Source: Bariatricus sp. (GTDB taxonomy: Bacteria > Bacillota > Clostridia > Lachnospirales > Lachnospiraceae). From it: a stretch of DNA of 64,000 nt. The notes below the pieces were generated by a model, which was not told the origin of the DNA, searched no databases, and worked only from the letters and a program-made list of their open reading frames with translations. Made by a program: the position numbers and the translations under genes. Positions 9,964-26,289 of this stretch are shown here, in pieces (the first letter of the stretch is position 1; each line of letters opens with the position of its first letter). The stretch spans positions 85,760 to 149,759 of the forward strand of contig JBJENH010000106.1 of NCBI GenBank assembly GCA_051880095.1, in the 5' to 3' direction.

Positions 9964-11310
9964 TCAATTTTCATTTTCTGACTGAATAATATTAAGTGTT
10001 TGGCGATATTCTTCGGCAATCGGAATCTTTGTAAATACAACAGTATTATTAAAATTCTCTATAACGACCTTTTCGATTTCATCAAGGCTTACATGGAAAA
10101 ATTCTTTCTTTAAATTAACACGGTTTACACTATTTTTTTCGAAATGCTTATGCAAGGTGTTTTCGAGCTCTGGAGCATTATCAGAAAAGATCATTGCATG
10201 TACATCAAATTCAAATGGGACAGATGCGCTGCTTAGTTCCTTAATCCTATCCATTGGTTCCAAACGTCGTGTCATACCGATTTTATATATATCTTCGCCG
10301 AATGATCCAATGTTCGAAATAACATAAACATATCCTGCGCGCGCATTTGCTTCTCGTTCCAAAACAGAATTCTTTTCCTCTTCGAGCTGTTTTAATTTAT
10401 CTTCCAACTCTTTGATTTTATCGACATATAATTGCTTCTCCACATCACTGGAAGTTTTTTGCATATATGAAAGAAGTTTTTTTACTTCGTTATTGCATTG
10501 AGCCTGATCCTTTTCGATTTTTGCTTTCTGACGTTCAATTTCACGACGAACCTTTTCTTCTTCTAACATCTGCTCTTTAATCGCCTTTTGCTGCTCACGC
10601 TCTTGCTCCTTTTTGAGCTCATAGGTATAAACCAGATTTAGTTCTTCGAGCTTCATTTCCAACATTTTGCTATTAAACGCAACGCCATCAATGGAGAAGA
10701 TTTTATTTAATGATTCGAAGGATTTAGATACTTTATTTCGAACAGCATCTATGTTTTTGTGTGTTAACCCAAGAAGCAAATTATCGCATTCAGCATTGAA
10801 GCAACGTAAAATTTGTTTCTTGTTATCAGAAATCTCTTTCTTAGAACCAGCGGAAGTAACGATAAATGCAGCATCGGATTTAACAAAATCTTGTTCTTTG
10901 TTTTTTAGTAACGACAATTTGTTTTTGCATTCCTCGGAAGATAAACCATCATAATCTGAAAAGTTGAAATGATCTACTAGGATATTTGATTCCAAGGTTT
11001 TTAATTCGGATTTCAATGAATTTACTTCAGATTTTAAGGATTTAAGTTTGCGGTTGTATTCAGTTTCTAATGAAGATTTTTTGTTTTGATATTCGGTATC
11101 AAGGTTTTGTAGCATAGAAGAAGCCTGATCTTCCTCTCCATACAAATCAAGCAACTTTTTGTTCTCTTTGTTTTGCAAAACTATACAAACTATCCCGAAA
11201 ATCGGAAAGACAAAAAGAAATGGAAGTGCAAATGCTATAATCGTTGGAGTAAAGAGAATAGCAATAACCCAGGTTTTTAAATACCATTTTGAGTGTTCTT
11301 TTGAAATCAT
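9964..11310 (-). CDS. DUF4041 / T5orf172 (GIY-YIG-like) domain protein with N-terminal TM segment
   Basis: GYVYVISNIGSFGEDIYKIGMTRR, ASVPFEFDVHA, KEFF motifs; coiled coil; hydrophobic N-terminus. Confidence 0.8.
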   Translation of the reverse strand: MISKEHSKWYLKTWVIAILFTPTIIAFALPFLFVFPIFGIVCIVLQNKENKKLLDLYGEEDQASSMLQNLDTEYQNKKSSLETEYNRKLKSLKSEVNSLKSELKTLESNILVDHFNFSDYDGLSSEECKNKLSLLKNKEQDFVKSDAAFIVTSAGSKKEISDNKKQILRCFNAECDNLLLGLTHKNIDAVRNKVSKSFESLNKIFSIDGVAFNSKMLEMKLEELNLVYTYELKKEQEREQQKAIKEQMLEEEKVRREIERQKAKIEKDQAQCNNEVKKLLSYMQKTSSDVEKQLYVDKIKELEDKLKQLEEEKNSVLEREANARAGYVYVISNIGSFGEDIYKIGMTRRLEPMDRIKELSSASVPFEFDVHAMIFSDNAPELENTLHKHFEKNSVNRVNLKKEFFHVSLDEIEKVVIENFNNTVVFTKIPIAEEYRQTLNIIQSENEN

Positions 11311-11989: not shown

Positions 11990-12316
11990 CTACTTGCTAT
12001 CCTCCTGTTTTACAAATTTTGCAAATGATTCTATGCGACTCCATTGCTCTTCAGTAAAGTCTTTTCCATCAAGGTGCGCTGCCATTGTGATGGGAACATC
12101 ATTAATATGAACGATTTCTCCGTCTACAAGCTTCTCTGTGTCCAGTTTTAATTCGCGCGTGATTTTTAACACATTTAAAATATTAGAGTTGGCAATCCCT
12201 CTTTTTAGGATACTGTCCAATGTAGTCCACGGCATATTTATTGTTTCACAAAACTTTTTCATACTTCCGTATTCATTTATAATAAGAGCTTTTAAGTTGG
12301 ACTCCAGTTCATTCAT
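11990..12316 (-). CDS. XRE-family phage repressor (CI/ImmR-like)
   Basis: HTH SMKKFCETINMPWTTLDSILKRG; divergent from cro; SD GGAGA before ATG 12316. Confidence 0.8.
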   Translation of the reverse strand: MNELESNLKALIINEYGSMKKFCETINMPWTTLDSILKRGIANSNILNVLKITRELKLDTEKLVDGEIVHINDVPITMAAHLDGKDFTEEQWSRIESFAKFVKQEDSK

Positions 12317-12428
12317 ACTGCAAGTTCTCCTTTCATTACTATGATTAGATAATACCACCGAAATCTCGAAAAATCAATATAAATGTTAATTGAATACGAT
12401 AAAAATATCTAAAATTCGAGAATATGTA

Positions 12429-12481
12429 TTGACAATCACGAATATTCGTGTATACTAAAACCGTAATCACGAAAAATCGAG
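12429..12481 (+). promoter_or_regulatory. Lytic promoter with operators
   Basis: TTGACA(12429)-16-TATACT(12451) with the palindrome CACGAATATTCGTG in the spacer; related site CACGAAAAATCGAG at 12468-12481. Confidence 0.75.
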
Positions 12482-12496
12482 AAAGGAAGTGATAGG

Positions 12497-12697
12497 GTGT
12501 TCCCGAATTTAGAAGCAGAGATGGCGAGAAACAAAATAACGCAGGCAAAGTTAGCTGGTATCCTCGGAATTACTCCAACTACATTATCATTCAAATTGAA
12601 CGGGAAGAGTAATTTGTCATTAAAGGAATGTGTTGAAATTAAGCGAAACGCATTTCCAGATAAAACATTGGATTATTTGTTTGCAACAGATGAATAA
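12497..12697 (+). CDS. Cro-like HTH protein
   Basis: MFPNLEAEMAR..ITQAKLAGILGITPTTLSFKLNG; GTG start after GAAAGGAAG. Confidence 0.85.
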   Translation: MFPNLEAEMARNKITQAKLAGILGITPTTLSFKLNGKSNLSLKECVEIKRNAFPDKTLDYLFATDE

Positions 12698-12719
12698 AGA
12701 AAGCGAGGTGACATGGATC

Positions 12720-12953
12720 ATGAACATTCAAGAAGCGGTACGACTGGCTATCGAAAGCGATGGATACATAGCCAGACAAGAATACGAAGATGGAAAAGCA
12801 TTCCACAGAACGAGAATTAAGCCTACAAACAGCTATGCGACATGTATTATTTTCACGTTCGATCAGGAAGGAAAAAGGATCACCCACTGTAAGAACTGGA
12901 ATCCTACAGCAGATGATCTGATGGCGGAAGACTGGGAAGTGTTTAAGGAATAA
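12720..12953 (+). CDS. Tad2-like (DUF2829 superfamily) putative anti-defence protein
   Basis: MNIQEA..A....I.R N-terminus and C-terminal WNPTADDLMAEDW motif; SD GAGGTG. Confidence 0.6.
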   Translation: MNIQEAVRLAIESDGYIARQEYEDGKAFHRTRIKPTNSYATCIIFTFDQEGKRITHCKNWNPTADDLMAEDWEVFKE

Positions 12954-13269
12954 ATTTTGAAATAAAGTCTGCGATAGACAATAAAGTTTCTTTCGGAAGC
13001 TCTTCTAATGTGGCTATTGCGTAATCGGAAAGATGGCAGATATAAACTGTATCATCGGCATACGTATTATCCAGATATCCGCAACGACCGAGCTCACGCA
13101 ACGAGTCTTCTACATCTTCCAGTAAACTATCGGGAAAGAAATTTTCATGAATAAATTCTGCAGACACAAAGTTTTTAGAATTCGATTTTGAGAATCCATG
13201 TTTTCGTCTATCGCAATATTCTTTGTACAAAATATACAGTGTTTTTTTCGAATCTTTTGTTAAGGTCAT
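12943..13269 (-). CDS. Hypothetical protein with its own promoter, antisense within the early operon
   Basis: 108-aa ORF; SD GAAAGGAG; promoter TTGCCT-17-TATAAT at 13350-13322. Confidence 0.75.
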   Translation of the reverse strand: MTLTKDSKKTLYILYKEYCDRRKHGFSKSNSKNFVSAEFIHENFFPDSLLEDVEDSLRELGRCGYLDNTYADDTVYICHLSDYAIATLEELPKETLLSIADFISKFIP

Positions 13270-13376
13270 TCAATGCTTACTCCTTTCTTACGTACTCAGC
13301 TCTGACGGAAGCCTGTATGTAAATTATAGGAGAACATGAAACAAAAGGCAATAGATAGAAAGCGAGGTGAATCGCA

Positions 13377-13595
13377 TTGAAAGAAGTATACCTTACAGCA
13401 GGAGAAGCATCGAAAGGGATCGGAGTTCCAGCGAAAACAATAATCTTCATGGCGCAGAAAGGCCTTACTAAGGCGGTGGATGTCATTCCTCCGGGTAAAG
13501 GTGGACGCCAGAGAAGATACATCATTAAAACAAGGAAGTTCTGCGAGGAGCTCGGAATTCCGTTTACACCAGATAAGGAGGGATCTAGATGTTAG
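13377..13595 (+). CDS. Small DNA-binding protein, possible excisionase
   Basis: YLTAGEASKGIGV...RYII pattern of MerR/Xis-like wHTH; SD GAGGTG with TTG start. Confidence 0.5.
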   Translation: MKEVYLTAGEASKGIGVPAKTIIFMAQKGLTKAVDVIPPGKGGRQRRYIIKTRKFCEELGIPFTPDKEGSRC

Positions 13596-13867
13596 GAATA
13601 AATGATAAGGCGGACATCATTATGAAACAGATCAGCGAATCAACCGGAATATGCTCCTGGGGAGAACAGCTTGAAAAGAAGATGCGGGAAGGGATCGAAA
13701 AAGGACTGGAAGAATTCGAAGAGATGGAACCAACCAGAACCTTCCCGCAGATCCAGGGAATCGTGGAAGCGGCAAAAGCAGGAATCCCGGTACAGGTTGG
13801 GTATGCAGAAACGGAAGATATCGGGAGTGAGACAGTAGATGGATATGTAAGGAGGATGTGCTGGTGA
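13589..13867 (+). CDS. Phage hypothetical protein
   Basis: 92-aa ORF in the early operon with SD. Confidence 0.6.
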   Translation: MLGINDKADIIMKQISESTGICSWGEQLEKKMREGIEKGLEEFEEMEPTRTFPQIQGIVEAAKAGIPVQVGYAETEDIGSETVDGYVRRMCW

Positions 13868-14064
13868 AAAAGATAGGAACCGTATTGGCAGCAGTGGGTT
13901 TTATGATGCTGGCGGCAGCAGTCAATACATACAGTGCCGGAGAAATGAATACCATGCAGTTTGTTCTGCAGATGATCGCATCAATAGAAGCATTAATAGC
14001 AAGCTATATATTAGGAGGGACACCGGATGGGAAGAGTGGCAGAAAGCCTGATAGAAGAGATTGA
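13858..14064 (+). CDS. Small membrane hypothetical protein
   Basis: Two hydrophobic segments; SD GGAGG. Confidence 0.45.
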   Translation: MLVKKIGTVLAAVGFMMLAAAVNTYSAGEMNTMQFVLQMIASIEALIASYILGGTPDGKSGRKPDRRD

Positions 14065-14200
14065 AACGGTAGCCAGACTGTCAAATGAAGAACCGGCAGA
14101 CGTGCATAAGGAATGGAAAGCTGCAGAAAAGGAAGGAATGAGCTTCAACTCATTTGTAGTCGGAAAATCCCGGAAGCGGGCGAAAGGAAGAGGAATATGA
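14027..14200 (+). CDS. 57-aa hypothetical protein MGRVAESLIEE... (not in track)
   Basis: SD AGGAGG at 14013-14018; stop overlaps the next ATG (ATGA). Confidence 0.55.
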   Translation: MGRVAESLIEEIETVARLSNEEPADVHKEWKAAEKEGMSFNSFVVGKSRKRAKGRGI

Positions 14201-14439
14201 GGGAAAGACATACAGTGCGCGTCACAGTGGAGCTGACGGAAGCGCAAATGAAAGAAATCAAAGAAATCACGAAAATGAAAAATACGATCGCAGATCAAGA
14301 GAAGAGTGTATTGCACTATAACACGGAAGACGAAGTGATAGGAAGTATCCTGACAGGGTATTTCCTTGCGGGACCGTATCTGGACGATGCGATTAAAAGA
14401 GAAAAGGAATATTTACAAAAAAAGAACGCCTGCAACTGA
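14197..14439 (+). CDS. Phage hypothetical protein
   Basis: Coupled by ATGA overlap; MRERHTVRV start. Confidence 0.55.
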   Translation: MRERHTVRVTVELTEAQMKEIKEITKMKNTIADQEKSVLHYNTEDEVIGSILTGYFLAGPYLDDAIKREKEYLQKKNACN

Positions 14440-14519
14440 ACATTGCAAGCGCCGTTACCGCTATGGTACACGAAATATCTCGACAATATGAGTGTACCAT
14501 AAGCGGGGCGGAAAGTCAA
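14417..14519 (-). ncRNA. Promoter plus ~70-nt antisense RNA upstream of rep
   Basis: TTGACT(14519-14514)-17-TGgTACACT(14496-14491); 10-bp terminator GCGCTTGCAA/TTGCAGGCGT followed by TCTTTTTTT. Confidence 0.6.
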
Positions 14520-14586
14520 GGAATACGGGATTTCCGGCCCGTTTTTATATCTTGATAAGACTATTAAAGTTAGGCAGGGTACACCA

Positions 14587-15486
14587 TTGAGAACGAAAAG
14601 AGTAACGTATGAATTTGACAATATGATAGAACGGGAAGAATACCTCGATGGAAGGTATGGAGCCCCAGGAGAGAAGCGGGCAGAAAAGAAGAAACCGACT
14701 CCCGAACAGGTGGCACAGGTCAATCAGTGGAACAAGGAGCGAAAAGCCAGACACCGGTTGCTGAAGTATTTCGGGAAGAACGACTACTTTATCACACTGA
14801 CCTATCCCAAAGAAGCAAGACCTCCGAACATGGAGGAAGCAAAGAAGGATTTCCGAAGATTTTATCAATATGTGAAGAAAGAATACACCAAACGGAACGA
14901 AGAGCTCCGATGGATCCGAAATATCGAATGTACATCAACGGGAAACTGGCATATTCATGTTGTGCTGAACCGGATCCCGGATACGGACATTATCACATCG
15001 AAGGCGTGGAAGCAGGGAAGAGTAAAGAATACTCAGCTCCTATACGAGAAAGGCGAGTTCAAGAAACTGGCACAGTACATCACCAAGGACGAAAAGACGC
15101 AGGCGAAATACGTGGAAGAAGGAGTCCTGGATCATAAGATTAGCGAGGCGGACTATTCCACATCAAGGAATATGCCTCTCCCGGAGCCGAAGGTAGACCA
15201 TCTGGAAAGATGGCCAAAGGAACCAAGGGCAAAGAAAGGCTGGTACATAGAGAAAGGATCCTGCTATGAGGGAACCAACAAGGCAACCGGATTCCCATAC
15301 CGGCGGTATACAATGATCCGGTTGGAAAGGAGGGAGAGTCATGAAGGTGGAGATCTACACCGAAACAAGCACCGCACTGACAACGGCCAAGAACGGAAAG
15401 TACATCGCACTCATCGTCGTACCGACAAGCAAAGGACCAGCGACAAAAGCAGTCCTGGGCGAAGAAAAAGACACGACAGCAAATAG
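14587..15486 (+). CDS. HUH-family rolling-circle replication-associated protein
   Basis: FITLTY motif 1, WHIHVV HUH motif, LAQYITK catalytic Tyr motif. Confidence 0.75.
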   Translation: MRTKRVTYEFDNMIEREEYLDGRYGAPGEKRAEKKKPTPEQVAQVNQWNKERKARHRLLKYFGKNDYFITLTYPKEARPPNMEEAKKDFRRFYQYVKKEYTKRNEELRWIRNIECTSTGNWHIHVVLNRIPDTDIITSKAWKQGRVKNTQLLYEKGEFKKLAQYITKDEKTQAKYVEEGVLDHKISEADYSTSRNMPLPEPKVDHLERWPKEPRAKKGWYIEKGSCYEGTNKATGFPYRRYTMIRLERRESHEGGDLHRNKHRTDNGQERKVHRTHRRTDKQRTSDKSSPGRRKRHDSK

Positions 15487-15763
15487 AATGGCGCTCCTGG
15501 CCATTCTGAACGGACTGGAAGAGCTGACGATGAAATGCGAAGTTACAGTATATACTCCGAATTCCTTTGTTTACAACATGATCCGGCAGGGAAATGTCGA
15601 AAAGTGGAAACGGGAGGAGTGGAGGCGGCCCCAGAACAAGGAACTGAAGAATAAGGAGCTCTGGAAACGGTTGGATGAAGATTTACAGAAGCAGGATGTA
15701 ACCGTAGTACATACAAGGGAAAACAAATACACGAAGCAAATGAAAAAGTGGTTGGAGGGATAA
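15341..15763 (+). CDS. RNase H-like protein
   Basis: KVEIYT..S, TANRMALLAILNGL, TPNSFV, GNVEKW, KNKELWKRL; acidic catalytic residues look partly degenerate. Confidence 0.7.
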   Translation: MKVEIYTETSTALTTAKNGKYIALIVVPTSKGPATKAVLGEEKDTTANRMALLAILNGLEELTMKCEVTVYTPNSFVYNMIRQGNVEKWKREEWRRPQNKELKNKELWKRLDEDLQKQDVTVVHTRENKYTKQMKKWLEG

Positions 15764-15766
15764 TGG

Positions 15767-16252
15767 ATGTTTGAAAAATTTGGAGAAATGGATTCTTATA
15801 TAGAGATCAACGAACTGGCTGAAAATCTGTTTAACGAAGGAGATTTTGCAAGCCTCAGAGAAATGGCAAAAGAGAACGGGATTACGGAAGATGCAGTGGA
15901 ACTCTATATTGCTGCAGAAATCCCGGAGCTGTGCGACGCCATGGAGGCAGCGATCGGAAAAATCGAGATGGAAGAAAAGGAGTTAAAGCCCAAAGAGATC
16001 ATGAAAGACTGGGCAGAATACCTAAAATGCCAGTGCATGGAGAATAAGGTCCTGTGTCATCAGGTCCGAAAGAAAGGGAAGAGCCTGAAAGGATGCATTG
16101 CAGTGCTCCTGGCGTGGTCGTTCAAGAATCAGCAGACGATTGATAAGGACATTATTAAGGCAGCAGGCGTATCTGCAGGAAGAGTCACGCTGGGGATTCC
16201 GGGAATGGGAAGGGCAAAACGAATCATCACGGACTATTATATGGGAAAGTAG
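15767..16252 (+). CDS. PcfK-like / AcrIIA9-family-like protein
   Basis: VRKKGKSLKGCI motif and position directly upstream of a PcfJ-like gene. Confidence 0.5.
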   Translation: MFEKFGEMDSYIEINELAENLFNEGDFASLREMAKENGITEDAVELYIAAEIPELCDAMEAAIGKIEMEEKELKPKEIMKDWAEYLKCQCMENKVLCHQVRKKGKSLKGCIAVLLAWSFKNQQTIDKDIIKAAGVSAGRVTLGIPGMGRAKRIITDYYMGK

Positions 16253-16262
16253 GCGGAAAAGC

Positions 16263-18393
16263 ATGAAAAAGAAAGCCATTGAAAAAATACCATATTTGAC
16301 GTTGCAGAAAACAAGCAGAAAAAAAGATGTGAAATATATCGGTGTGACGGCCATAAAGATAGTAGACCACGAAAAACATCTATTCGTGGAAATATACAGG
16401 AATAGCAAGGATGCAAAAGAGATCCCGCTGGTACGGATCGTGCTCACAAAAAAAAGATTTTGGAACTTTTTTCCCGGAGTCGGGAGAATGGTCAAGAAAA
16501 AGGATCACGGAAGAATACTATAGGAACTGTCCGGTATGGTATCAGAATGGTGAGAATGGAAGAGAAACATGGGATGAGATGGAGAAAAAGAACATTCTCC
16601 AGAGTGATGAAGATATTGAACGGATAAAAAAATACTGCGGAACAACGATTTGGAATGAGAAACGATGGTGGGAATACATAGAAAGGTTCCAGAGCAATAT
16701 CGCTACAGACGCGAGAAACAAAGCAAGGGAGAGAAAATATCAGAAACGGCAGCAGGAATTGAAGGACCGGATAGAACACACGGAACCACTTCCGGAAAAG
16801 AAAATTCTGGAAATAGCAGACAGAAGATACTTTTTGGAATCCCATTACTTGTATTACAAGAAGCACGGGTGCTGGGCCGCAATTGCATGCAGCAAATGCG
16901 GAGGTGTGACTGACGCCAGGTGGAAAGCGGGAATATCTTATGAGAGCGAGTTCCAGAGGTGGACAGAAGAGCCAAGAGAGGGACATTTTGGGACGTGCCC
17001 CTTGTGCGGAGCGCGAGGAGAGTACAAGTGTCAAGGAAAAGTCAAAGGATCACACAGTAAGACGGTTCATCTGTTTCTAGGGCAAAAATATAAAGATCAT
17101 GGAATGGTAATGCGATATGTTGAAATCAGCAAAACATGGAGACTGGAACTGATTTGCGGAGAGGAAGGCCCGGAGATGTTCAATGCTAGCGAGGAATTAT
17201 CCGGAGTCGAAATTGCAAGAGCCTATTTTGAACCGGGAAAGAAAAATCAGATTGATTATCACAAACACAATTATTATAGCGGAGAGGATTTTTGGGATGA
17301 CTGCAACCTATGCGGATTGGCCAACATAACGATAAAAAGTGCTCCGATCTTGGCGGAAACATACGAGGAAATGAAGGGAACGATGTTCCAGTACAGTGCA
17401 CTTCAGGAGTATGTAAAAGAGGTAGGAGAAGTAAACCCGATCGATTACTTCGAGCGATATCAGCAGACACCGCAGATAGAAATGCTTGTCAAATTGGGAT
17501 TAATTGGTATTGTAGGGGAACTTGTCAAATGCCGTTATGGCATTGTGGCTTGTGAGACTGCAAAAAGCCCGGACCAGTTCTTGGGAATCCGGAAAGAAAG
17601 AGTAAAACAGTTGATTGCAATGAGAGGGGATGTGGATCTGCTGGAAACAATGAAGATGGAGTGCCGCATGAATCAAGTATGGACGGATGAGCAGATACAA
17701 GATGTAGCAGAGACAAGACTCCGAAGAGGGCAGATCGAAATGGCAACCGAATATATGACTCTGCAGAAATTGTTAAACCGGATAAAGAAATACGCAGGAT
17801 GCGAATACGGTACCGGATGTACTTCGGTAACTGAGAGAATCCGACAGACCGCCGTACTCTATGTAGACTATTTAAATATGAGAAAGGATTTGGGGTACGA
17901 TCTCAGAAACACGGTATACCAGCAGCCACGAAGCCTGAGGGATGCGCACGGGAAAATGGTTATGGAGAGCAGCAAAGGTGAGATGGACAAACGCCTGCAG
18001 GAAGTTAAAGCCAAGTTTCAGAATATCCGCAGGAACTATAGACGATTTAGAAAACAATATTTCTACGAGGATGATAGATATCTCATCAGACCGGCCAGAT
18101 CAGCAGAGGAAATCGTCATGGAGGGGAGAATCTTACACCATTGTGTGGGAGGAGATGGCTACCTGAAAAAGCACAACGAAGGGAAGACATACATTCTGAT
18201 GCTGAGAGATAAGAGAGACAAGGAAGTGCCTTTCATCACGGTAGAGATTGATGGGGAACGAAATCGAATCATTCAGTGGTACGGATCACACGACAAAAAG
18301 CCAGACTCTAAAAACATGCAGAAGTGGCTGGACGAGTATGTGATGAGATTAAACAGCGAAGCCGTGGAGGAGCAGAAGATAGCAATAGCATAA
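16263..18393 (+). pseudogene. PcfJ-like protein split by a +1 frameshift in an A8 tract (16448-16455)
   Basis: 5' part MKKKAIEK (16263) and 3' part (track 16411-18393) join if the run is A7 (L-T-K-K-D-F-G); C-terminal PARSAEEIVMEGRILHHCVG..Y..K PcfJ motif. Confidence 0.75.
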
Positions 18394-18408
18394 GTGAGGA
18401 GGTAAGAG

Positions 18409-19773
18409 ATGGAATATACACAGATGACATTAGACCAGTGGGTTATATTAAAAGACTCACTCAAACAGGACATCATCGATGCGAAAGAGAAATTCGATGG
18501 AATCAAGCGAGATTTTGTAAGGATCGGATATAAACTCAGGAAGATCGAGGAATTAAAGCTTTACGAAAAGGACGGATACAAAACCATTACGGAATTTGCC
18601 GAAGCAGAGTGCAAGCTGACAAAGACAGATGTATCCAGATTTATCAGCATCAACGAACGGTATTCGGTTGGCGGATATTCGGAAGAGCTTCGGGAAGAGT
18701 TTCTGGAATACGGCAGCAGTAAGCTCGCAGAGATGCTTACACTTCCGGATCATGATATGCAGATGATCCAACCAGAAGCCAGCAGGGAAGGAATCCGGGA
18801 AGTGAAGCGGTTCAATAAAACCGGACCCGAAGCCGGAGAAGCCGATACAATCCGGGAACTAATCGAGAAGTTTTTCCAGGACAACAAAGAAACACTCAAT
18901 ACCTTATTCGCGGATCCGGCGATGCAGGAGTACGAACAGAACATCAAACACCTGGTAGAGATCGTGAATCCTTCCGGAAACCGCACGATGAGAAAAGGGA
19001 GATTCTTCCTCATGATGTATGAGAGCAAGATTATGATCAAACAGTTCGGGGAAGAACCTCAGGATATGCAGTGGAGCGAATTCTTACGCATCACGCAGGA
19101 AATCTTCGGGGAAGCTGCAGGAGAAGATACCTGGGAAGCCTATTTCACGGAAGAAGCGGCACCGATAGGAAATACTTCGGCGGAGGAAGCCGAAGCAGAA
19201 ACACAGATAAAAGAAGAAAAGGTAGAAGAGGAGAAAGAAGATGAAGAACGAAAGAACCGAGTTCCCGGAACTGTTAATACAAGCAATGAGAGCACTGGAG
19301 GAGGACGAGAAGAAGAGGAAAGCGTGGAAGGAGACGATCGGACAGAAGAACAGAACAAAGAAAACGAGGGCAGCAGCCAGGCCGTATCCATCACTCCGAC
19401 AGAACCGGAAAATGAGAAAATTGCGCCGGCGCAAAAAGTAGCGCAAGCCCCAGTACGTACAAGGGAAGAAGGGGGTTCAAAAGAACCAAAAACGAAATCC
19501 GAAACCGCACCAACGAACCAGCCAGAGGAGCAGATTCCGGGACAAATGGAAGTCACAGACTATCCAGAGATCCTTCCAGAGCCGGAAACCGCATTTGGAA
19601 ACCGGAAACAATATCTGGATACCTTAACGGAATACGGGGCAGCAGTCTATTTTGCAGAATGCTGCAGAACCGGAAAGATGCCAGTCGACCGATTACTGCC
19701 AAGTGCATGGGAAAACTGGTTTAATCAGGAAGTAGATGACAAAGGCAGAGAAATTGAAAGCGTAGAAGATTAG
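18409..19773 (+). CDS. Phage hypothetical protein with conserved N-terminal domain and long acidic linker
   Basis: 454-aa ORF, SD GGAGG; IGYKLRKI..LY..DGY..FAE pattern. Confidence 0.75.
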   Translation: MEYTQMTLDQWVILKDSLKQDIIDAKEKFDGIKRDFVRIGYKLRKIEELKLYEKDGYKTITEFAEAECKLTKTDVSRFISINERYSVGGYSEELREEFLEYGSSKLAEMLTLPDHDMQMIQPEASREGIREVKRFNKTGPEAGEADTIRELIEKFFQDNKETLNTLFADPAMQEYEQNIKHLVEIVNPSGNRTMRKGRFFLMMYESKIMIKQFGEEPQDMQWSEFLRITQEIFGEAAGEDTWEAYFTEEAAPIGNTSAEEAEAETQIKEEKVEEEKEDEERKNRVPGTVNTSNESTGGGREEEESVEGDDRTEEQNKENEGSSQAVSITPTEPENEKIAPAQKVAQAPVRTREEGGSKEPKTKSETAPTNQPEEQIPGQMEVTDYPEILPEPETAFGNRKQYLDTLTEYGAAVYFAECCRTGKMPVDRLLPSAWENWFNQEVDDKGREIESVED

Positions 19774-25480: not shown

Positions 25481-25831
25481 TTGAAGGTGGTGAAGTGGGT
25501 GTTTACAGAAGAACAGATAAGCATAGGCGAGTGGGTACGCAAGATTACCGCAGACTCATACCGTGGATGGAAAGCCTTTTACCACACAACAAAGTGGAAA
25601 CATAAACGCAAGGCCATATTAAAGCGTGATCACAACGCTTGCCAGATGTGCCGGCAAAAGGGAAAGTACAGACGTGCTACTACTGTACATCACATCAAAC
25701 ACCTGAGAGATACACCTGAGCTGGCACTGACGGATAGCAACCTAATCAGCTTGTGTGATGAGTGCCATGAGGCAATGCATCCAGAGAAACATAAGAGAAA
25801 ACCTGGCTATAGGAATGCGGAACGCTGGTGA
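25481..25831 (+). CDS. HNH endonuclease (packaging-associated)
   Basis: CQMC, VHHIKH, NLISLCDECHEAMH; directly upstream of terS. Confidence 0.9.
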   Translation: MKVVKWVFTEEQISIGEWVRKITADSYRGWKAFYHTTKWKHKRKAILKRDHNACQMCRQKGKYRRATTVHHIKHLRDTPELALTDSNLISLCDECHEAMHPEKHKRKPGYRNAERW

Positions 25832-25935
25832 CTCCCCCGGTCAAAAGAAATGAAAAACTCCTGGCCTACAGGAGACCGGCGCCCACCCCATCCTAGCGAG
25901 TTTTCGGTTGTTACGCGTGAAAAGTATGAAAAGCA
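25832..25935. other. Probable cos/packaging-site region
   Basis: GC-rich intergenic gap (CTCCCCCGGTC...) between HNH and terS; based on position only. Confidence 0.35.
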
Positions 25936-25953
25936 GTGGAAGAAGGTGGTGGA

Positions 25954-26289
25954 TTGGCAAAGAAGAAGCGCGAAACCCTGCGAAAAGAGGTTGAAAAATC
26001 GTTGAAAGAACAGCTGACAGCAAAGGGCGCGGACATTGATCTGTTCAATGACCAGATCCAGGATTACATGACAATGTGGGATTTGAAGGAAATGTTAAAA
26101 GACGATATCCAGGAAAACGGTCTGCGGTTGAATTATACTACAGCAAATGGTGGATTCGCTGAAAAAGACAATCCGTCAGTGAAGCAAATACCGCTGATCA
26201 ATAAGCAGATGCTGATGCTATTAAAGCAGCTGGACATTTCAACGGATAAGGTTGTAAAGGACGGTGTTGATTTAGATGACGATCTATGA
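25954..26289 (+). CDS. terS: Terminase small subunit (P27-like)
   Basis: DQIQDYMTMW, I.E.G, K.NPSVKQI..INKQML.LL.QL; position. Confidence 0.8.
   Translation: MAKKKRETLRKEVEKSLKEQLTAKGADIDLFNDQIQDYMTMWDLKEMLKDDIQENGLRLNYTTANGGFAEKDNPSVKQIPLINKQMLMLLKQLDISTDKVVKDGVDLDDDL

Follow-up and report, generated by a model that had tools for sequence, protein, structure and literature searches.

How does a temperate tailed phage replicate its genome when it appears to bring almost no replication proteins of its own? The question is raised by a complete siphovirus-type prophage of ~39 kb, which spans ~8.6 to 47.4 kb of a 64,000-nt stretch of a Bariatricus sp. genome (Lachnospiraceae; assembly GCA_051880095.1, contig JBJENH010000106.1, positions 85,760 to 149,759; hereafter "the window", with all coordinates counted from its first nucleotide). 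In agreement with the original prediction, which was made from the letters of this DNA alone, searches of the 12.4-25.9 kb interval against Pfam, PHROGs and NCBIfam gave no helicase, primase, single-stranded DNA-binding protein (SSB), helicase loader or recombinase, and the only recognizable replication gene of the prophage encodes a putative rolling-circle initiator of the HUH type (Rep). This gene, a candidate origin and a predicted small antisense RNA gene sit together within the early operon, the usual place of the replication module in a complete tailed prophage. We propose that they form the replication cassette of this phage, working by a rolling-circle route and including a cis-antisense RNA, a statement to which, taken as a whole, we would give an even chance of being correct.

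An HUH Initiator Is the Sole Recognizable Replication Protein

Rep matches the Pfam family PF23343 (REP_ORF2-G2P) above its curated threshold (5.6e-16, 59.1 bits for a cut-off of 27.8) and covers 252 of the 265 profile positions of phrog_3584, "replication initiation protein" (8.9e-50). All three motifs of HUH enzymes are found in the expected order, namely motif I (ITLTY73), the HUH motif itself (H122-I-H124) and LAQY164ITK167, in which the catalytic Tyr164 is encoded at 15076-15078, and motif I, H122, H124, Y164 and K167 are unchanged in 12 homologues down to 27% identity. An AlphaFold (AF2) model with a mean predicted local distance difference test score (pLDDT) of 84.8 has a predicted HUH fold, and its best structural match in VIA-align was the SIRV1 ORF119 HUH nuclease (2x3g; Z 9.4 over 113 residues, root-mean-square deviation 3.7). 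The matches that follow (parvovirus NS1, RepB, Vientovirus Rep and Helitron, Z 6-6.8) are interspersed, at the same Z, with folds of unrelated ribosomal and designed proteins; Foldseek returned only weak HUH matches for the model, and a search of the Rep profile against PDB sequences gave no match. The family matches, motifs and predicted fold, along with the complete set of prophage genes, bear out the earlier assignment of a tailed temperate phage with an HUH Rep. From these sequence features, we infer that Rep would nick DNA at a specific site and become covalently linked to the 5' end through its tyrosine.

Which kind of rolling-circle initiator this is can be addressed through its third motif and its family relationships. 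A P2-gpA-style initiation had been suggested, and the mechanism fits, as P2/186 gpA and phiX174 gpA likewise initiate rolling-circle replication of a phage genome as HUH nickases. P2 differs in that its origin is located within gene A and in that it supplies a helicase loader. The likeness to gpA does not extend to the protein: P2 and phiX174 gpA have two catalytic tyrosines, whereas motif III of the window's Rep holds a single invariant Tyr instead of two spaced as YxxxY, there is no Pfam match to Phage_GPA (PF05840) at E <= 0.1, and the core of the nick site (see below) is of the pC194/Rep_1 type. Nor does Rep match Rep_1 (PF01446) in Pfam at E <= 0.1. In RepA of pC194, the catalytic residues are Glu210 and Tyr214, with the Glu four positions before the Tyr (PMC5703833), and this Glu is not conserved here, the residue four before Y164 being K, D or E depending on the lineage. 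The predicted mechanism is that of a rolling-circle replicon, with a Rep that falls in neither Rep_1 nor Phage_GPA.

The TTG start of rep is backed by the conservation of the first residues across relatives, and the conserved core of the protein comprises residues 1-253. Homology stops near residue 253 (position 15345), relatives end around residue 250, and the last ~46 residues of the window's Rep form a non-conserved extension across the next gene: the open reading frame (ORF) lacks a stop codon at the usual place and runs on for 146 nt, in another frame, into the RNase H-like gene that follows (15341-15486). One further lineage (L112) has an overlap of this kind (86 nt), and since its 28-residue tail has no sequence similarity to the tail in the window, the C-terminal extension looks like unselected read-on. 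Other relatives have rep and the RNase H-like gene end to end, or another gene behind rep.

A Conserved Candidate Origin Lies Just Upstream of rep

A candidate nick origin had been placed at 14520-14580, and comparison with relatives now strongly backs it because the motif is conserved. An alignment of the DNA ahead of rep in the window, in four IMG/VR contigs and in phage phiCs5676-1 revealed an AT-rich box, CTTGATAAGAnTATTAA, that is invariant apart from one N position in the six aligned sequences. The GC hairpin on its 5' side changes its arms in a compensatory manner, so that the stem is kept in all lineages. When the box is searched as CTTG[AT]TAA[AG]AnTATTAA, it occurs 35-85 nt 5' of rep in all fetched relatives, even in Butyrivibrio phage Arawn, whose Rep is 33% identical, and still more distant homologues have degenerate boxes such as CTCGATAAAGATATTAA.

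The link between box and gene was also recovered without reference to rep. A blind scan of IMG/VR with the 17-mer returned 112 stretches, 41 of which have a same-strand Rep homologue (28-76% identical) starting just downstream, and in the 3.2-Mb host genome the box is present as a single copy, at the rep locus. Taken together, we hold the assignment of Rep as initiator and of this site as its origin to be highly probable.

The phiX174 origin reads CTTG/ATA, and adopting what we take to be the cleavage position there and in pC194, the nick would fall between G14554 and A14555 (CTTG/ATA). The CTTGATA core (14551-14557), which is conserved in relatives, is also the conserved sequence at which the double-strand origin (dso) of Rep_1 (pC194-type) replicons is nicked (PMC10378824), and pC194 and pUB110 share with the present system an HUH initiator and an origin placed just upstream of rep. 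An antisense RNA is associated with rep in these plasmids too (PMC5703833), but there it lies over the rep translation start, and the replicon here is a ~39-kb tailed prophage rather than a plasmid. Small plasmids (1.5 and 2.5 kb) that encode distant Rep homologues contain no comparable origin or RNA unit that we could recognize.

Could Rep instead serve another kind of strand transfer, such as mobilization, with an unrecognized protein replicating the phage? Several conserved neighbors of rep have no assigned role, and one of them is of the PcfJ type, named after a protein of conjugative plasmids and known from such plasmids. Given that Rep alone is recognizable as a replication protein and is encoded where the replication module is expected, that its relatives occur in cultured phages, and that an origin-like site adjoins the gene, we consider this reading very improbable.

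In a group of more distant, Arawn-like relatives (L002, L015, L030, L043, L085, L100), the hairpin and nick box are kept and the T-run that follows the hairpin, which closer relatives conserve, is absent. These relatives also have a conserved box of their own, ACTACATATATATAAGG, ~15 nt upstream of the hairpin, at the place where closer relatives hold the antisense promoter described below.

A Predicted Terminated Antisense RNA Gene Accompanies the Origin

Immediately upstream of the origin hairpin, a sigma-70-type promoter on the minus strand is predicted to drive a small RNA of ~70 nt that ends at an intrinsic terminator (Table 1). The promoter is conserved, and its original description as a consensus promoter slightly overstated the match: nine of the 12 hexamer positions agree with the consensus, and TGG precedes the -10 element, i.e., an extended -10 TG. 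The predicted RNA consists of a ~12-nt single-stranded 5' tail, a small stem-loop, a strong terminator stem-loop and a U-run, and folds with a minimum free energy of -22.1 kcal/mol (z -2.6). Promoter matches or terminator matches taken singly are not enriched in the window; it is their combination that is kept in position among relatives.

When 11 lineages are anchored on the -35 element, each position of TTGAC reaches 2 bits, and in the -10 element the T, the A and the last T reach 1.6-2 bits, with the spacer and the transcribed part drifting while these consensus positions hold. The distance from the -35 element to the nick motif is 27-32 nt in 16 sequences. In the 14 of these 16 that yielded a clear terminator (the window and 13 further sequences), the RNA is predicted to measure 62-71 nt, with the same architecture and different sequences, and fold z-scores range from -2.6 to -5.4 in 10 of the 11 lineages. 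Searching Rfam with the RNA gave no family and only two sub-threshold chance matches, and RNAalifold on a MAFFT alignment of the 14 RNAs returned no consensus structure, because their sequences are too diverged to align, so that we relied on the folds of individual sequences instead.

To evaluate how tightly this unit is linked to rep, we used an independent sample of 36 full-length Rep loci, one genome per genus, and a strict detector (TTGAC[AT], 16-18 nt, TAnnnT, then a hairpin and T-run 35-85 nt past the predicted start). Ahead of rep, the complete promoter-RNA unit was detected on the minus strand in 22 of the 36 loci, compared with none of the 36 on the plus strand of the same region and none within the initial 300 nt of rep, whichever strand was scanned. 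A gene for the terminated antisense RNA of the original prediction is thereby upheld, and on the basis of this difference from the controls we regard this gene, with good confidence, as a real and conserved companion of this Rep family.

The predicted RNA fills the gap between the preceding stop codon and the origin, and in 10 lineages its overlap with the upstream coding region amounts to -6 to +25 nt (for the window, 25 nt at the 3' end of the ORF at 14113-14439), which argues that it belongs to the origin-rep cassette and not to the upstream gene. The same observation bears on whether the RNA may act as the oop RNA of phage lambda does, lowering the upstream gene by pairing with its 3' end. 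Its setting is reminiscent of oop, being a short terminated antisense RNA between early genes and a replication gene with a 25-nt overlap in the window. Yet the overlap is small in all 10 lineages, the upstream genes differ among them, and the unit travels with the origin and rep rather than with any upstream gene, so that an oop-like function is hardly to be expected.

A close counterpart in culture is phiCs5676-1 (OR574845), a temperate siphovirus of Clostridium scindens (PMC8005731), in which Rep (54% identical to that of the window) is followed in the same order by genes for an annotated "Rnase H", an unknown protein, a PcfJ-like protein and another unknown protein. Its hairpin and nick box are the same as those of the window, and it likewise has the antisense promoter (here TTGACT-17-TATATT) and a predicted terminated RNA of ~70 nt; unlike in the window, its rep and RNase H-like genes do not overlap. 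The publication on this phage contains no replication analysis (PMC8005731). In its sequence record, a 36-codon hypothetical coding sequence, CS5676_0051, is annotated over the apparent small-RNA gene and its promoter (L001:5850-5960), which is probably a mis-annotation.

A second, near-perfect nick box, CCTGATAAGAATATTAAC, was observed in two scaffolds of Lachnospiraceae bacterium 50-23 (L016:2858-2924, and L017). It lies ~100 nt upstream of the real nick box, inside the 5' part of the small-RNA gene, and decayed versions are seen at the same place in L101 and L001. These extra boxes may be secondary Rep sites or recombination scars.

A Model for Replication and the Possible Roles of the Antisense RNA

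In the model that we favor, Rep would recognize the GC hairpin and the CTTGATAAGAnTATTAA dso, nick the plus strand within CTTG/ATA and stay attached to the 5' end, with host enzymes extending the 3'-OH. Unwinding and synthesis would presumably fall to a host PcrA-type helicase and PolC, since the phage itself encodes no helicase, primase or SSB, and the resulting concatemers would suit the HNH and terminase genes for packaging.

As for the expression of rep, no promoter-like site was found between the origin hairpin and the gene, and the hairpin with its T-run is the only plus-strand terminator-like site in the scanned region (12300-16300), which takes in the early operon as far as rep; transcripts that reach rep would thus contain the complement of the small RNA and pass the hairpin. 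We suggest that rep would be expressed by read-through of the early operon over the hairpin and T-run, and that the divergent promoter just upstream of the origin would make a ~70-nt RNA complementary over its full length to the untranslated part of the early transcript that separates the preceding gene from the origin. Acting in cis as an antisense regulator, this RNA could determine, in proportion to the number of templates, the amount of rep message that persists or gets past the hairpin, i.e., plasmid-like copy control rather than a classical pre-emptor/terminator switch. We infer the expression of the RNA, as well as the direction and mechanism of the regulation, from comparative sequence data, and we advance the cis-antisense role tentatively, as an idea somewhat less probable than an even chance.

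Among the plasmids with known antisense control, the pT181 and pIP501 types offer the nearest parallels. Replicons related to pIP501 have an antisense promoter in the leader, followed by an inverted repeat and poly-T just 5' of rep, and RNAI of pSK41 has an 18-nt tail and two stem-loops (PMC5703833). The window shares with this type a hairpin with poly-T 5' of the rep start (14525-14547); its predicted antisense RNA gene would likewise lie in a leader transcribed ahead of rep, and the build of its predicted RNA (5' tail and two stem-loops) resembles that of pSK41 RNAI. It differs in having no pre-emptor, in that its hairpin doubles as part of the origin and is kept without the T-run in distant relatives, and in its Rep, to which the Rep families of those plasmids (Rep_trans, PriCT_1) are unrelated.

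Several results weigh against an antisense regulator, some of them against its classical form. Pairing between the RNA target and the hairpin, as a pre-emptor would require, is no better than in shuffled sequences (duplex z -0.8 to +0.9 in 11 lineages), and about half of the lineages form the hairpin in equilibrium folds whether or not the RNA is present. With a target that lacks complementarity to the hairpin, and a hairpin that in these lineages forms regardless of the RNA, a pT181-type switch is unsupported. The RNA lies upstream of the origin and not over the start of rep; it leaves the rep ribosome site uncovered and has no complementarity to it in trans. In addition, 14 of the 36 relatives have no detectable RNA unit. 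Control by a countertranscript RNA, as first proposed, is therefore one of several live readings, and the position of the RNA upstream of the origin and the failure to find pre-emptor pairing are the parts of the evidence that do not fit it. We also considered antisense action in trans on the rep start region as a whole and rejected it, as no complementarity exceeds that of shuffled sequences except in L016, where it is explained by the duplicated nick-like box.

A variant in which the hairpin is regulated through an alternative pairing was considered as well. In the window, 10 of 12 positions of CGGGGCGGAAAG, within the promoter spacer (14504-14516), are complementary to the loop and 3' arm of the hairpin, ATTTCCGGCCCG (14530-14541), and similar pairs are seen in L001, L012, L016 and L101. 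In equilibrium folds, masking the RNA target frees the spacer to pair with the 3' arm in five of nine lineages. It is possible that this pairing acts as an antiterminator in some lineages only: it is significant in just four to five related lineages that share GGGGCGGAAAG, and cannot for this reason be generalized. It would moreover predict activation (more read-through) rather than repression, which is again at odds with a repressing antisense RNA.

A further feature that a plain countertranscript model leaves unexplained, and which thus counts against it, is an imperfect inverted repeat that embraces the promoter (Table 1). In most lineages, the repeat links the DNA just past the RNA start with the promoter's own spacer. 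In the window, it has a z-score of -3.8, with none of 200 shuffled sequences folding as well. Across the 11 lineages, z is -3.8 or lower in six and -2.6 to -2.8 in three, and ~10 of 23 genomes in an independent set have z < -2.5; the repeat occurs, with other sequences, in most but not all lineages. As single-stranded DNA, it would render part of the promoter double-stranded. We found no strand asymmetry in the repeat, as judged by G-T wobbles.

Rolling-circle plasmids have single-strand origins (sso), and Ff phages have a minus-strand origin next to their plus origin; at these elements RNA polymerase primes synthesis, with RNAs that measure ~20 nt at ssoA and in Ff. The promoter-RNA unit could be an element of this kind, with host RNA polymerase making the ~70-nt RNA as a primer for the lagging strand on the displaced plus strand. 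It adjoins the dso on the upstream side, and its RNA is complementary to the displaced strand, in keeping with where an sso must lie and how it must be oriented (PMC5703833). Like ssoA, ssoU and the Ff minus origin, it combines promoter features with foldable DNA beside a plus origin; in many lineages the plus strand can fold the spacer together with the -35 or the -10 element into a double strand that leaves the start site in the loop. No primase is encoded by the phage, and Rep belongs to a Pfam family related to G2P of inoviruses. Yet this hairpin is missing or weak in L004, L003 and about half of the independent set, rebuilds different parts of the promoter in different lineages and has no strand bias. 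What is conserved corresponds to a normal promoter in duplex DNA. The CS-6 box (TAGCGT/A) of ssoA-type origins is absent from both strands in the 11 lineages, and an RNA of 62-71 nt with an intrinsic terminator exceeds the length of the primers named above. On balance, we judge an sso rather unlikely.

Alternatively, the unit might act at the level of DNA, with divergent transcription 6-8 bp from the hairpin supplying negative supercoils or positioning RNA polymerase so that the hairpin extrudes, or the AT-rich nick box melts, more readily, and the short RNA and strong terminator serving only to keep polymerase from running antisense into the early genes. HUH enzymes require a single-stranded substrate, the spacing of the -35 element to the nick motif is rigid in all 16 sequences, and the RNA sequence is free to evolve while promoter and terminator are kept, all of which would suit such a role. 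A by-product RNA would, however, have no need of the conserved length and two-hairpin build, and this possibility appears improbable to us. Cis-antisense regulation of rep is our preferred, if tentative, reading of the RNA.

An RNase H-Fold Gene Without the Catalytic Tetrad Follows rep in Many Relatives

The gene overlapping the 3' end of rep had been predicted to be RNase H-like, and both the fold and the 146-nt overlap are confirmed. Its AF2 model (pLDDT 93.9) aligns in Foldseek with RNase H1 of Chlorobium (3h08) at a template-modeling score of 0.84 and has the fold of bacterial RNase HI, including the basic protrusion. The match to NCBIfam RNase HI (82.8 bits) is below the cut-off of 160, and the expectation that did not hold is that of an active site: at the positions of D10, E48, D70 and D134 of E. 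coli RNase HI, the protein has E8, A51, Pro and Lys. Among 27 rep-linked homologues (nine from phage contigs and 18 from independent genomes), none has Asp10 or the full DEDD tetrad; all rep-linked members that we examined show substitutions of the catalytic carboxylates. As the tetrad is absent, the protein is probably not a nuclease, and judging from the aligned residues catalytic decay is general among the rep-linked RNase H-like genes examined.

We consider this neighbor to be probably a non-catalytic accessory that binds nucleic acid. It is dispensable in many relatives, following rep in 18 of the 36 independent genomes. The RNA unit is found in 12 of the 18 loci with the gene and in 10 of the 18 without it, i.e., the two do not co-occur beyond expectation, and a joint function of the RNA unit and the RNase H-like protein becomes less likely. 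In a broader speculation, the RNA is not a copy-control countertranscript but part of the origin machinery: through the promoter within a hairpin beside the nick site, host RNA polymerase would, for each genome unit, once prime lagging-strand synthesis or open the origin, and the dead RNase H would bind the RNA:DNA hybrid as an accessory. We regard this scenario as quite unlikely; if true, it would be an undescribed route for a double-stranded DNA phage to replicate without primase, helicase loader or SSB.

Genomic Context of the Cassette

The coordinates of the cassette and of the surrounding prophage genes are collected in Table 1.

Table 1. Predicted features of the replication cassette and of the prophage around it (window coordinates).
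Feature	Position	Strand	Details
Imperfect inverted repeat	arms 14453-14472 and 14492-14512		right arm contains the promoter -10 and spacer; RNA start in the loop
Terminator of the small RNA	stem 14453-14425, U-run 14423-14417	minus	12-bp stem
Predicted small antisense RNA	~14484 to ~14415	minus	~70 nt
Sigma-70-type promoter of the small RNA	14519-14491	minus	-35 TTGACT (14519-14514), 17-nt spacer, -10 TACACT (14496-14491)
Origin hairpin ACGGG-loop-CCCGT	14525-14542, T-run to 14547	plus	
Nick-site motif CTTGATAAGACTATTAA	14551-14567	plus	20 nt upstream of rep
Putative HUH rolling-circle initiator Rep	14587-15486	plus	299-aa ORF, TTG start
RNase H-fold protein	15341-15763	plus	Pfam PF00075, 2.4e-16
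Three genes after the RNase H-like gene	15767-19773	plus	161-aa; 660-aa, PcfJ-like; 454-aa (phrog_15077)
Strong promoter of the rightward early operon	12429-12456	plus	
Integrase, ImmA-like protease, repressor	left part of the prophage	minus	
HNH endonuclease, small and large terminase, portal, protease, capsid, tape measure, tail genes, endolysin	right of the early operon		

The three genes that follow the RNase H-like gene occur in the same order in phiCs5676-1, and their products are candidates for the missing replication accessories. The 660-aa PcfJ-domain protein carries CxxC pairs, and the leads obtained from Atlas for the other two are PcfK-like for the 161-aa protein (11% share) and, weakly, DUF3102 and partition proteins for the 454-aa protein.

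Farther to the right, the HNH endonuclease gene lies directly 5' of that for the small terminase subunit (25481-26289), an arrangement typical of HNH-assisted cos packaging. Packaging of this kind requires concatemers, and thus fits with rolling-circle replication.

On the left side, a gene of lower GC content (0.345) at 9964-11310 on the minus strand, between the integrase and the ImmA/repressor pair, encodes a 448-aa protein with DUF4041 and T5orf172/MUG113 (GIY-YIG-like) domains. It is possibly a prophage-borne defence or moron gene.

Significance for Lachnospiraceae Prophages

Relatives of this Rep are annotated as "replication initiation protein" in databases for the tailed phages phiCs5676-1, Butyrivibrio Arawn and Idris, and phiSM101. 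Our literature searches found nothing specific on HUH Rep proteins in Caudoviricetes or on the replication of Arawn, and no experimental description of the replication strategy of this Rep. The type of initiator is hence already catalogued, and the origin and the RNA are the parts for which we found no description. What the present analysis adds is a quantified linkage of the nick box and RNA unit to Rep, a failed pre-emptor test, the repeat that embraces the promoter and the general decay of the RNase H. In terms of predicted features, Rep travels as a cassette with the origin and the small antisense RNA gene, joined in roughly half of the relatives by the dead RNase H.

This provides a defined origin region of ~170 bp, in which a hairpin and nick box are combined with a small RNA gene outside any Rfam family, and phiCs5676-1 on C. 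scindens is a cultured model at hand in which to study it. The origin region could also serve as a replicon for genetic tools in anaerobes that are hard to manipulate. The question that the locus now raises is the role of a conserved antisense RNA beside a rolling-circle origin, and the repeated occurrence of a catalytically dead RNase H poses a minor puzzle of its own. Broadly speaking, with a Rep homologue present in 50 of 300 sampled genus-level genomes of Lachnospiraceae, or about one in six, the rolling-circle route proposed here would be a common replication strategy of gut Lachnospiraceae prophages.

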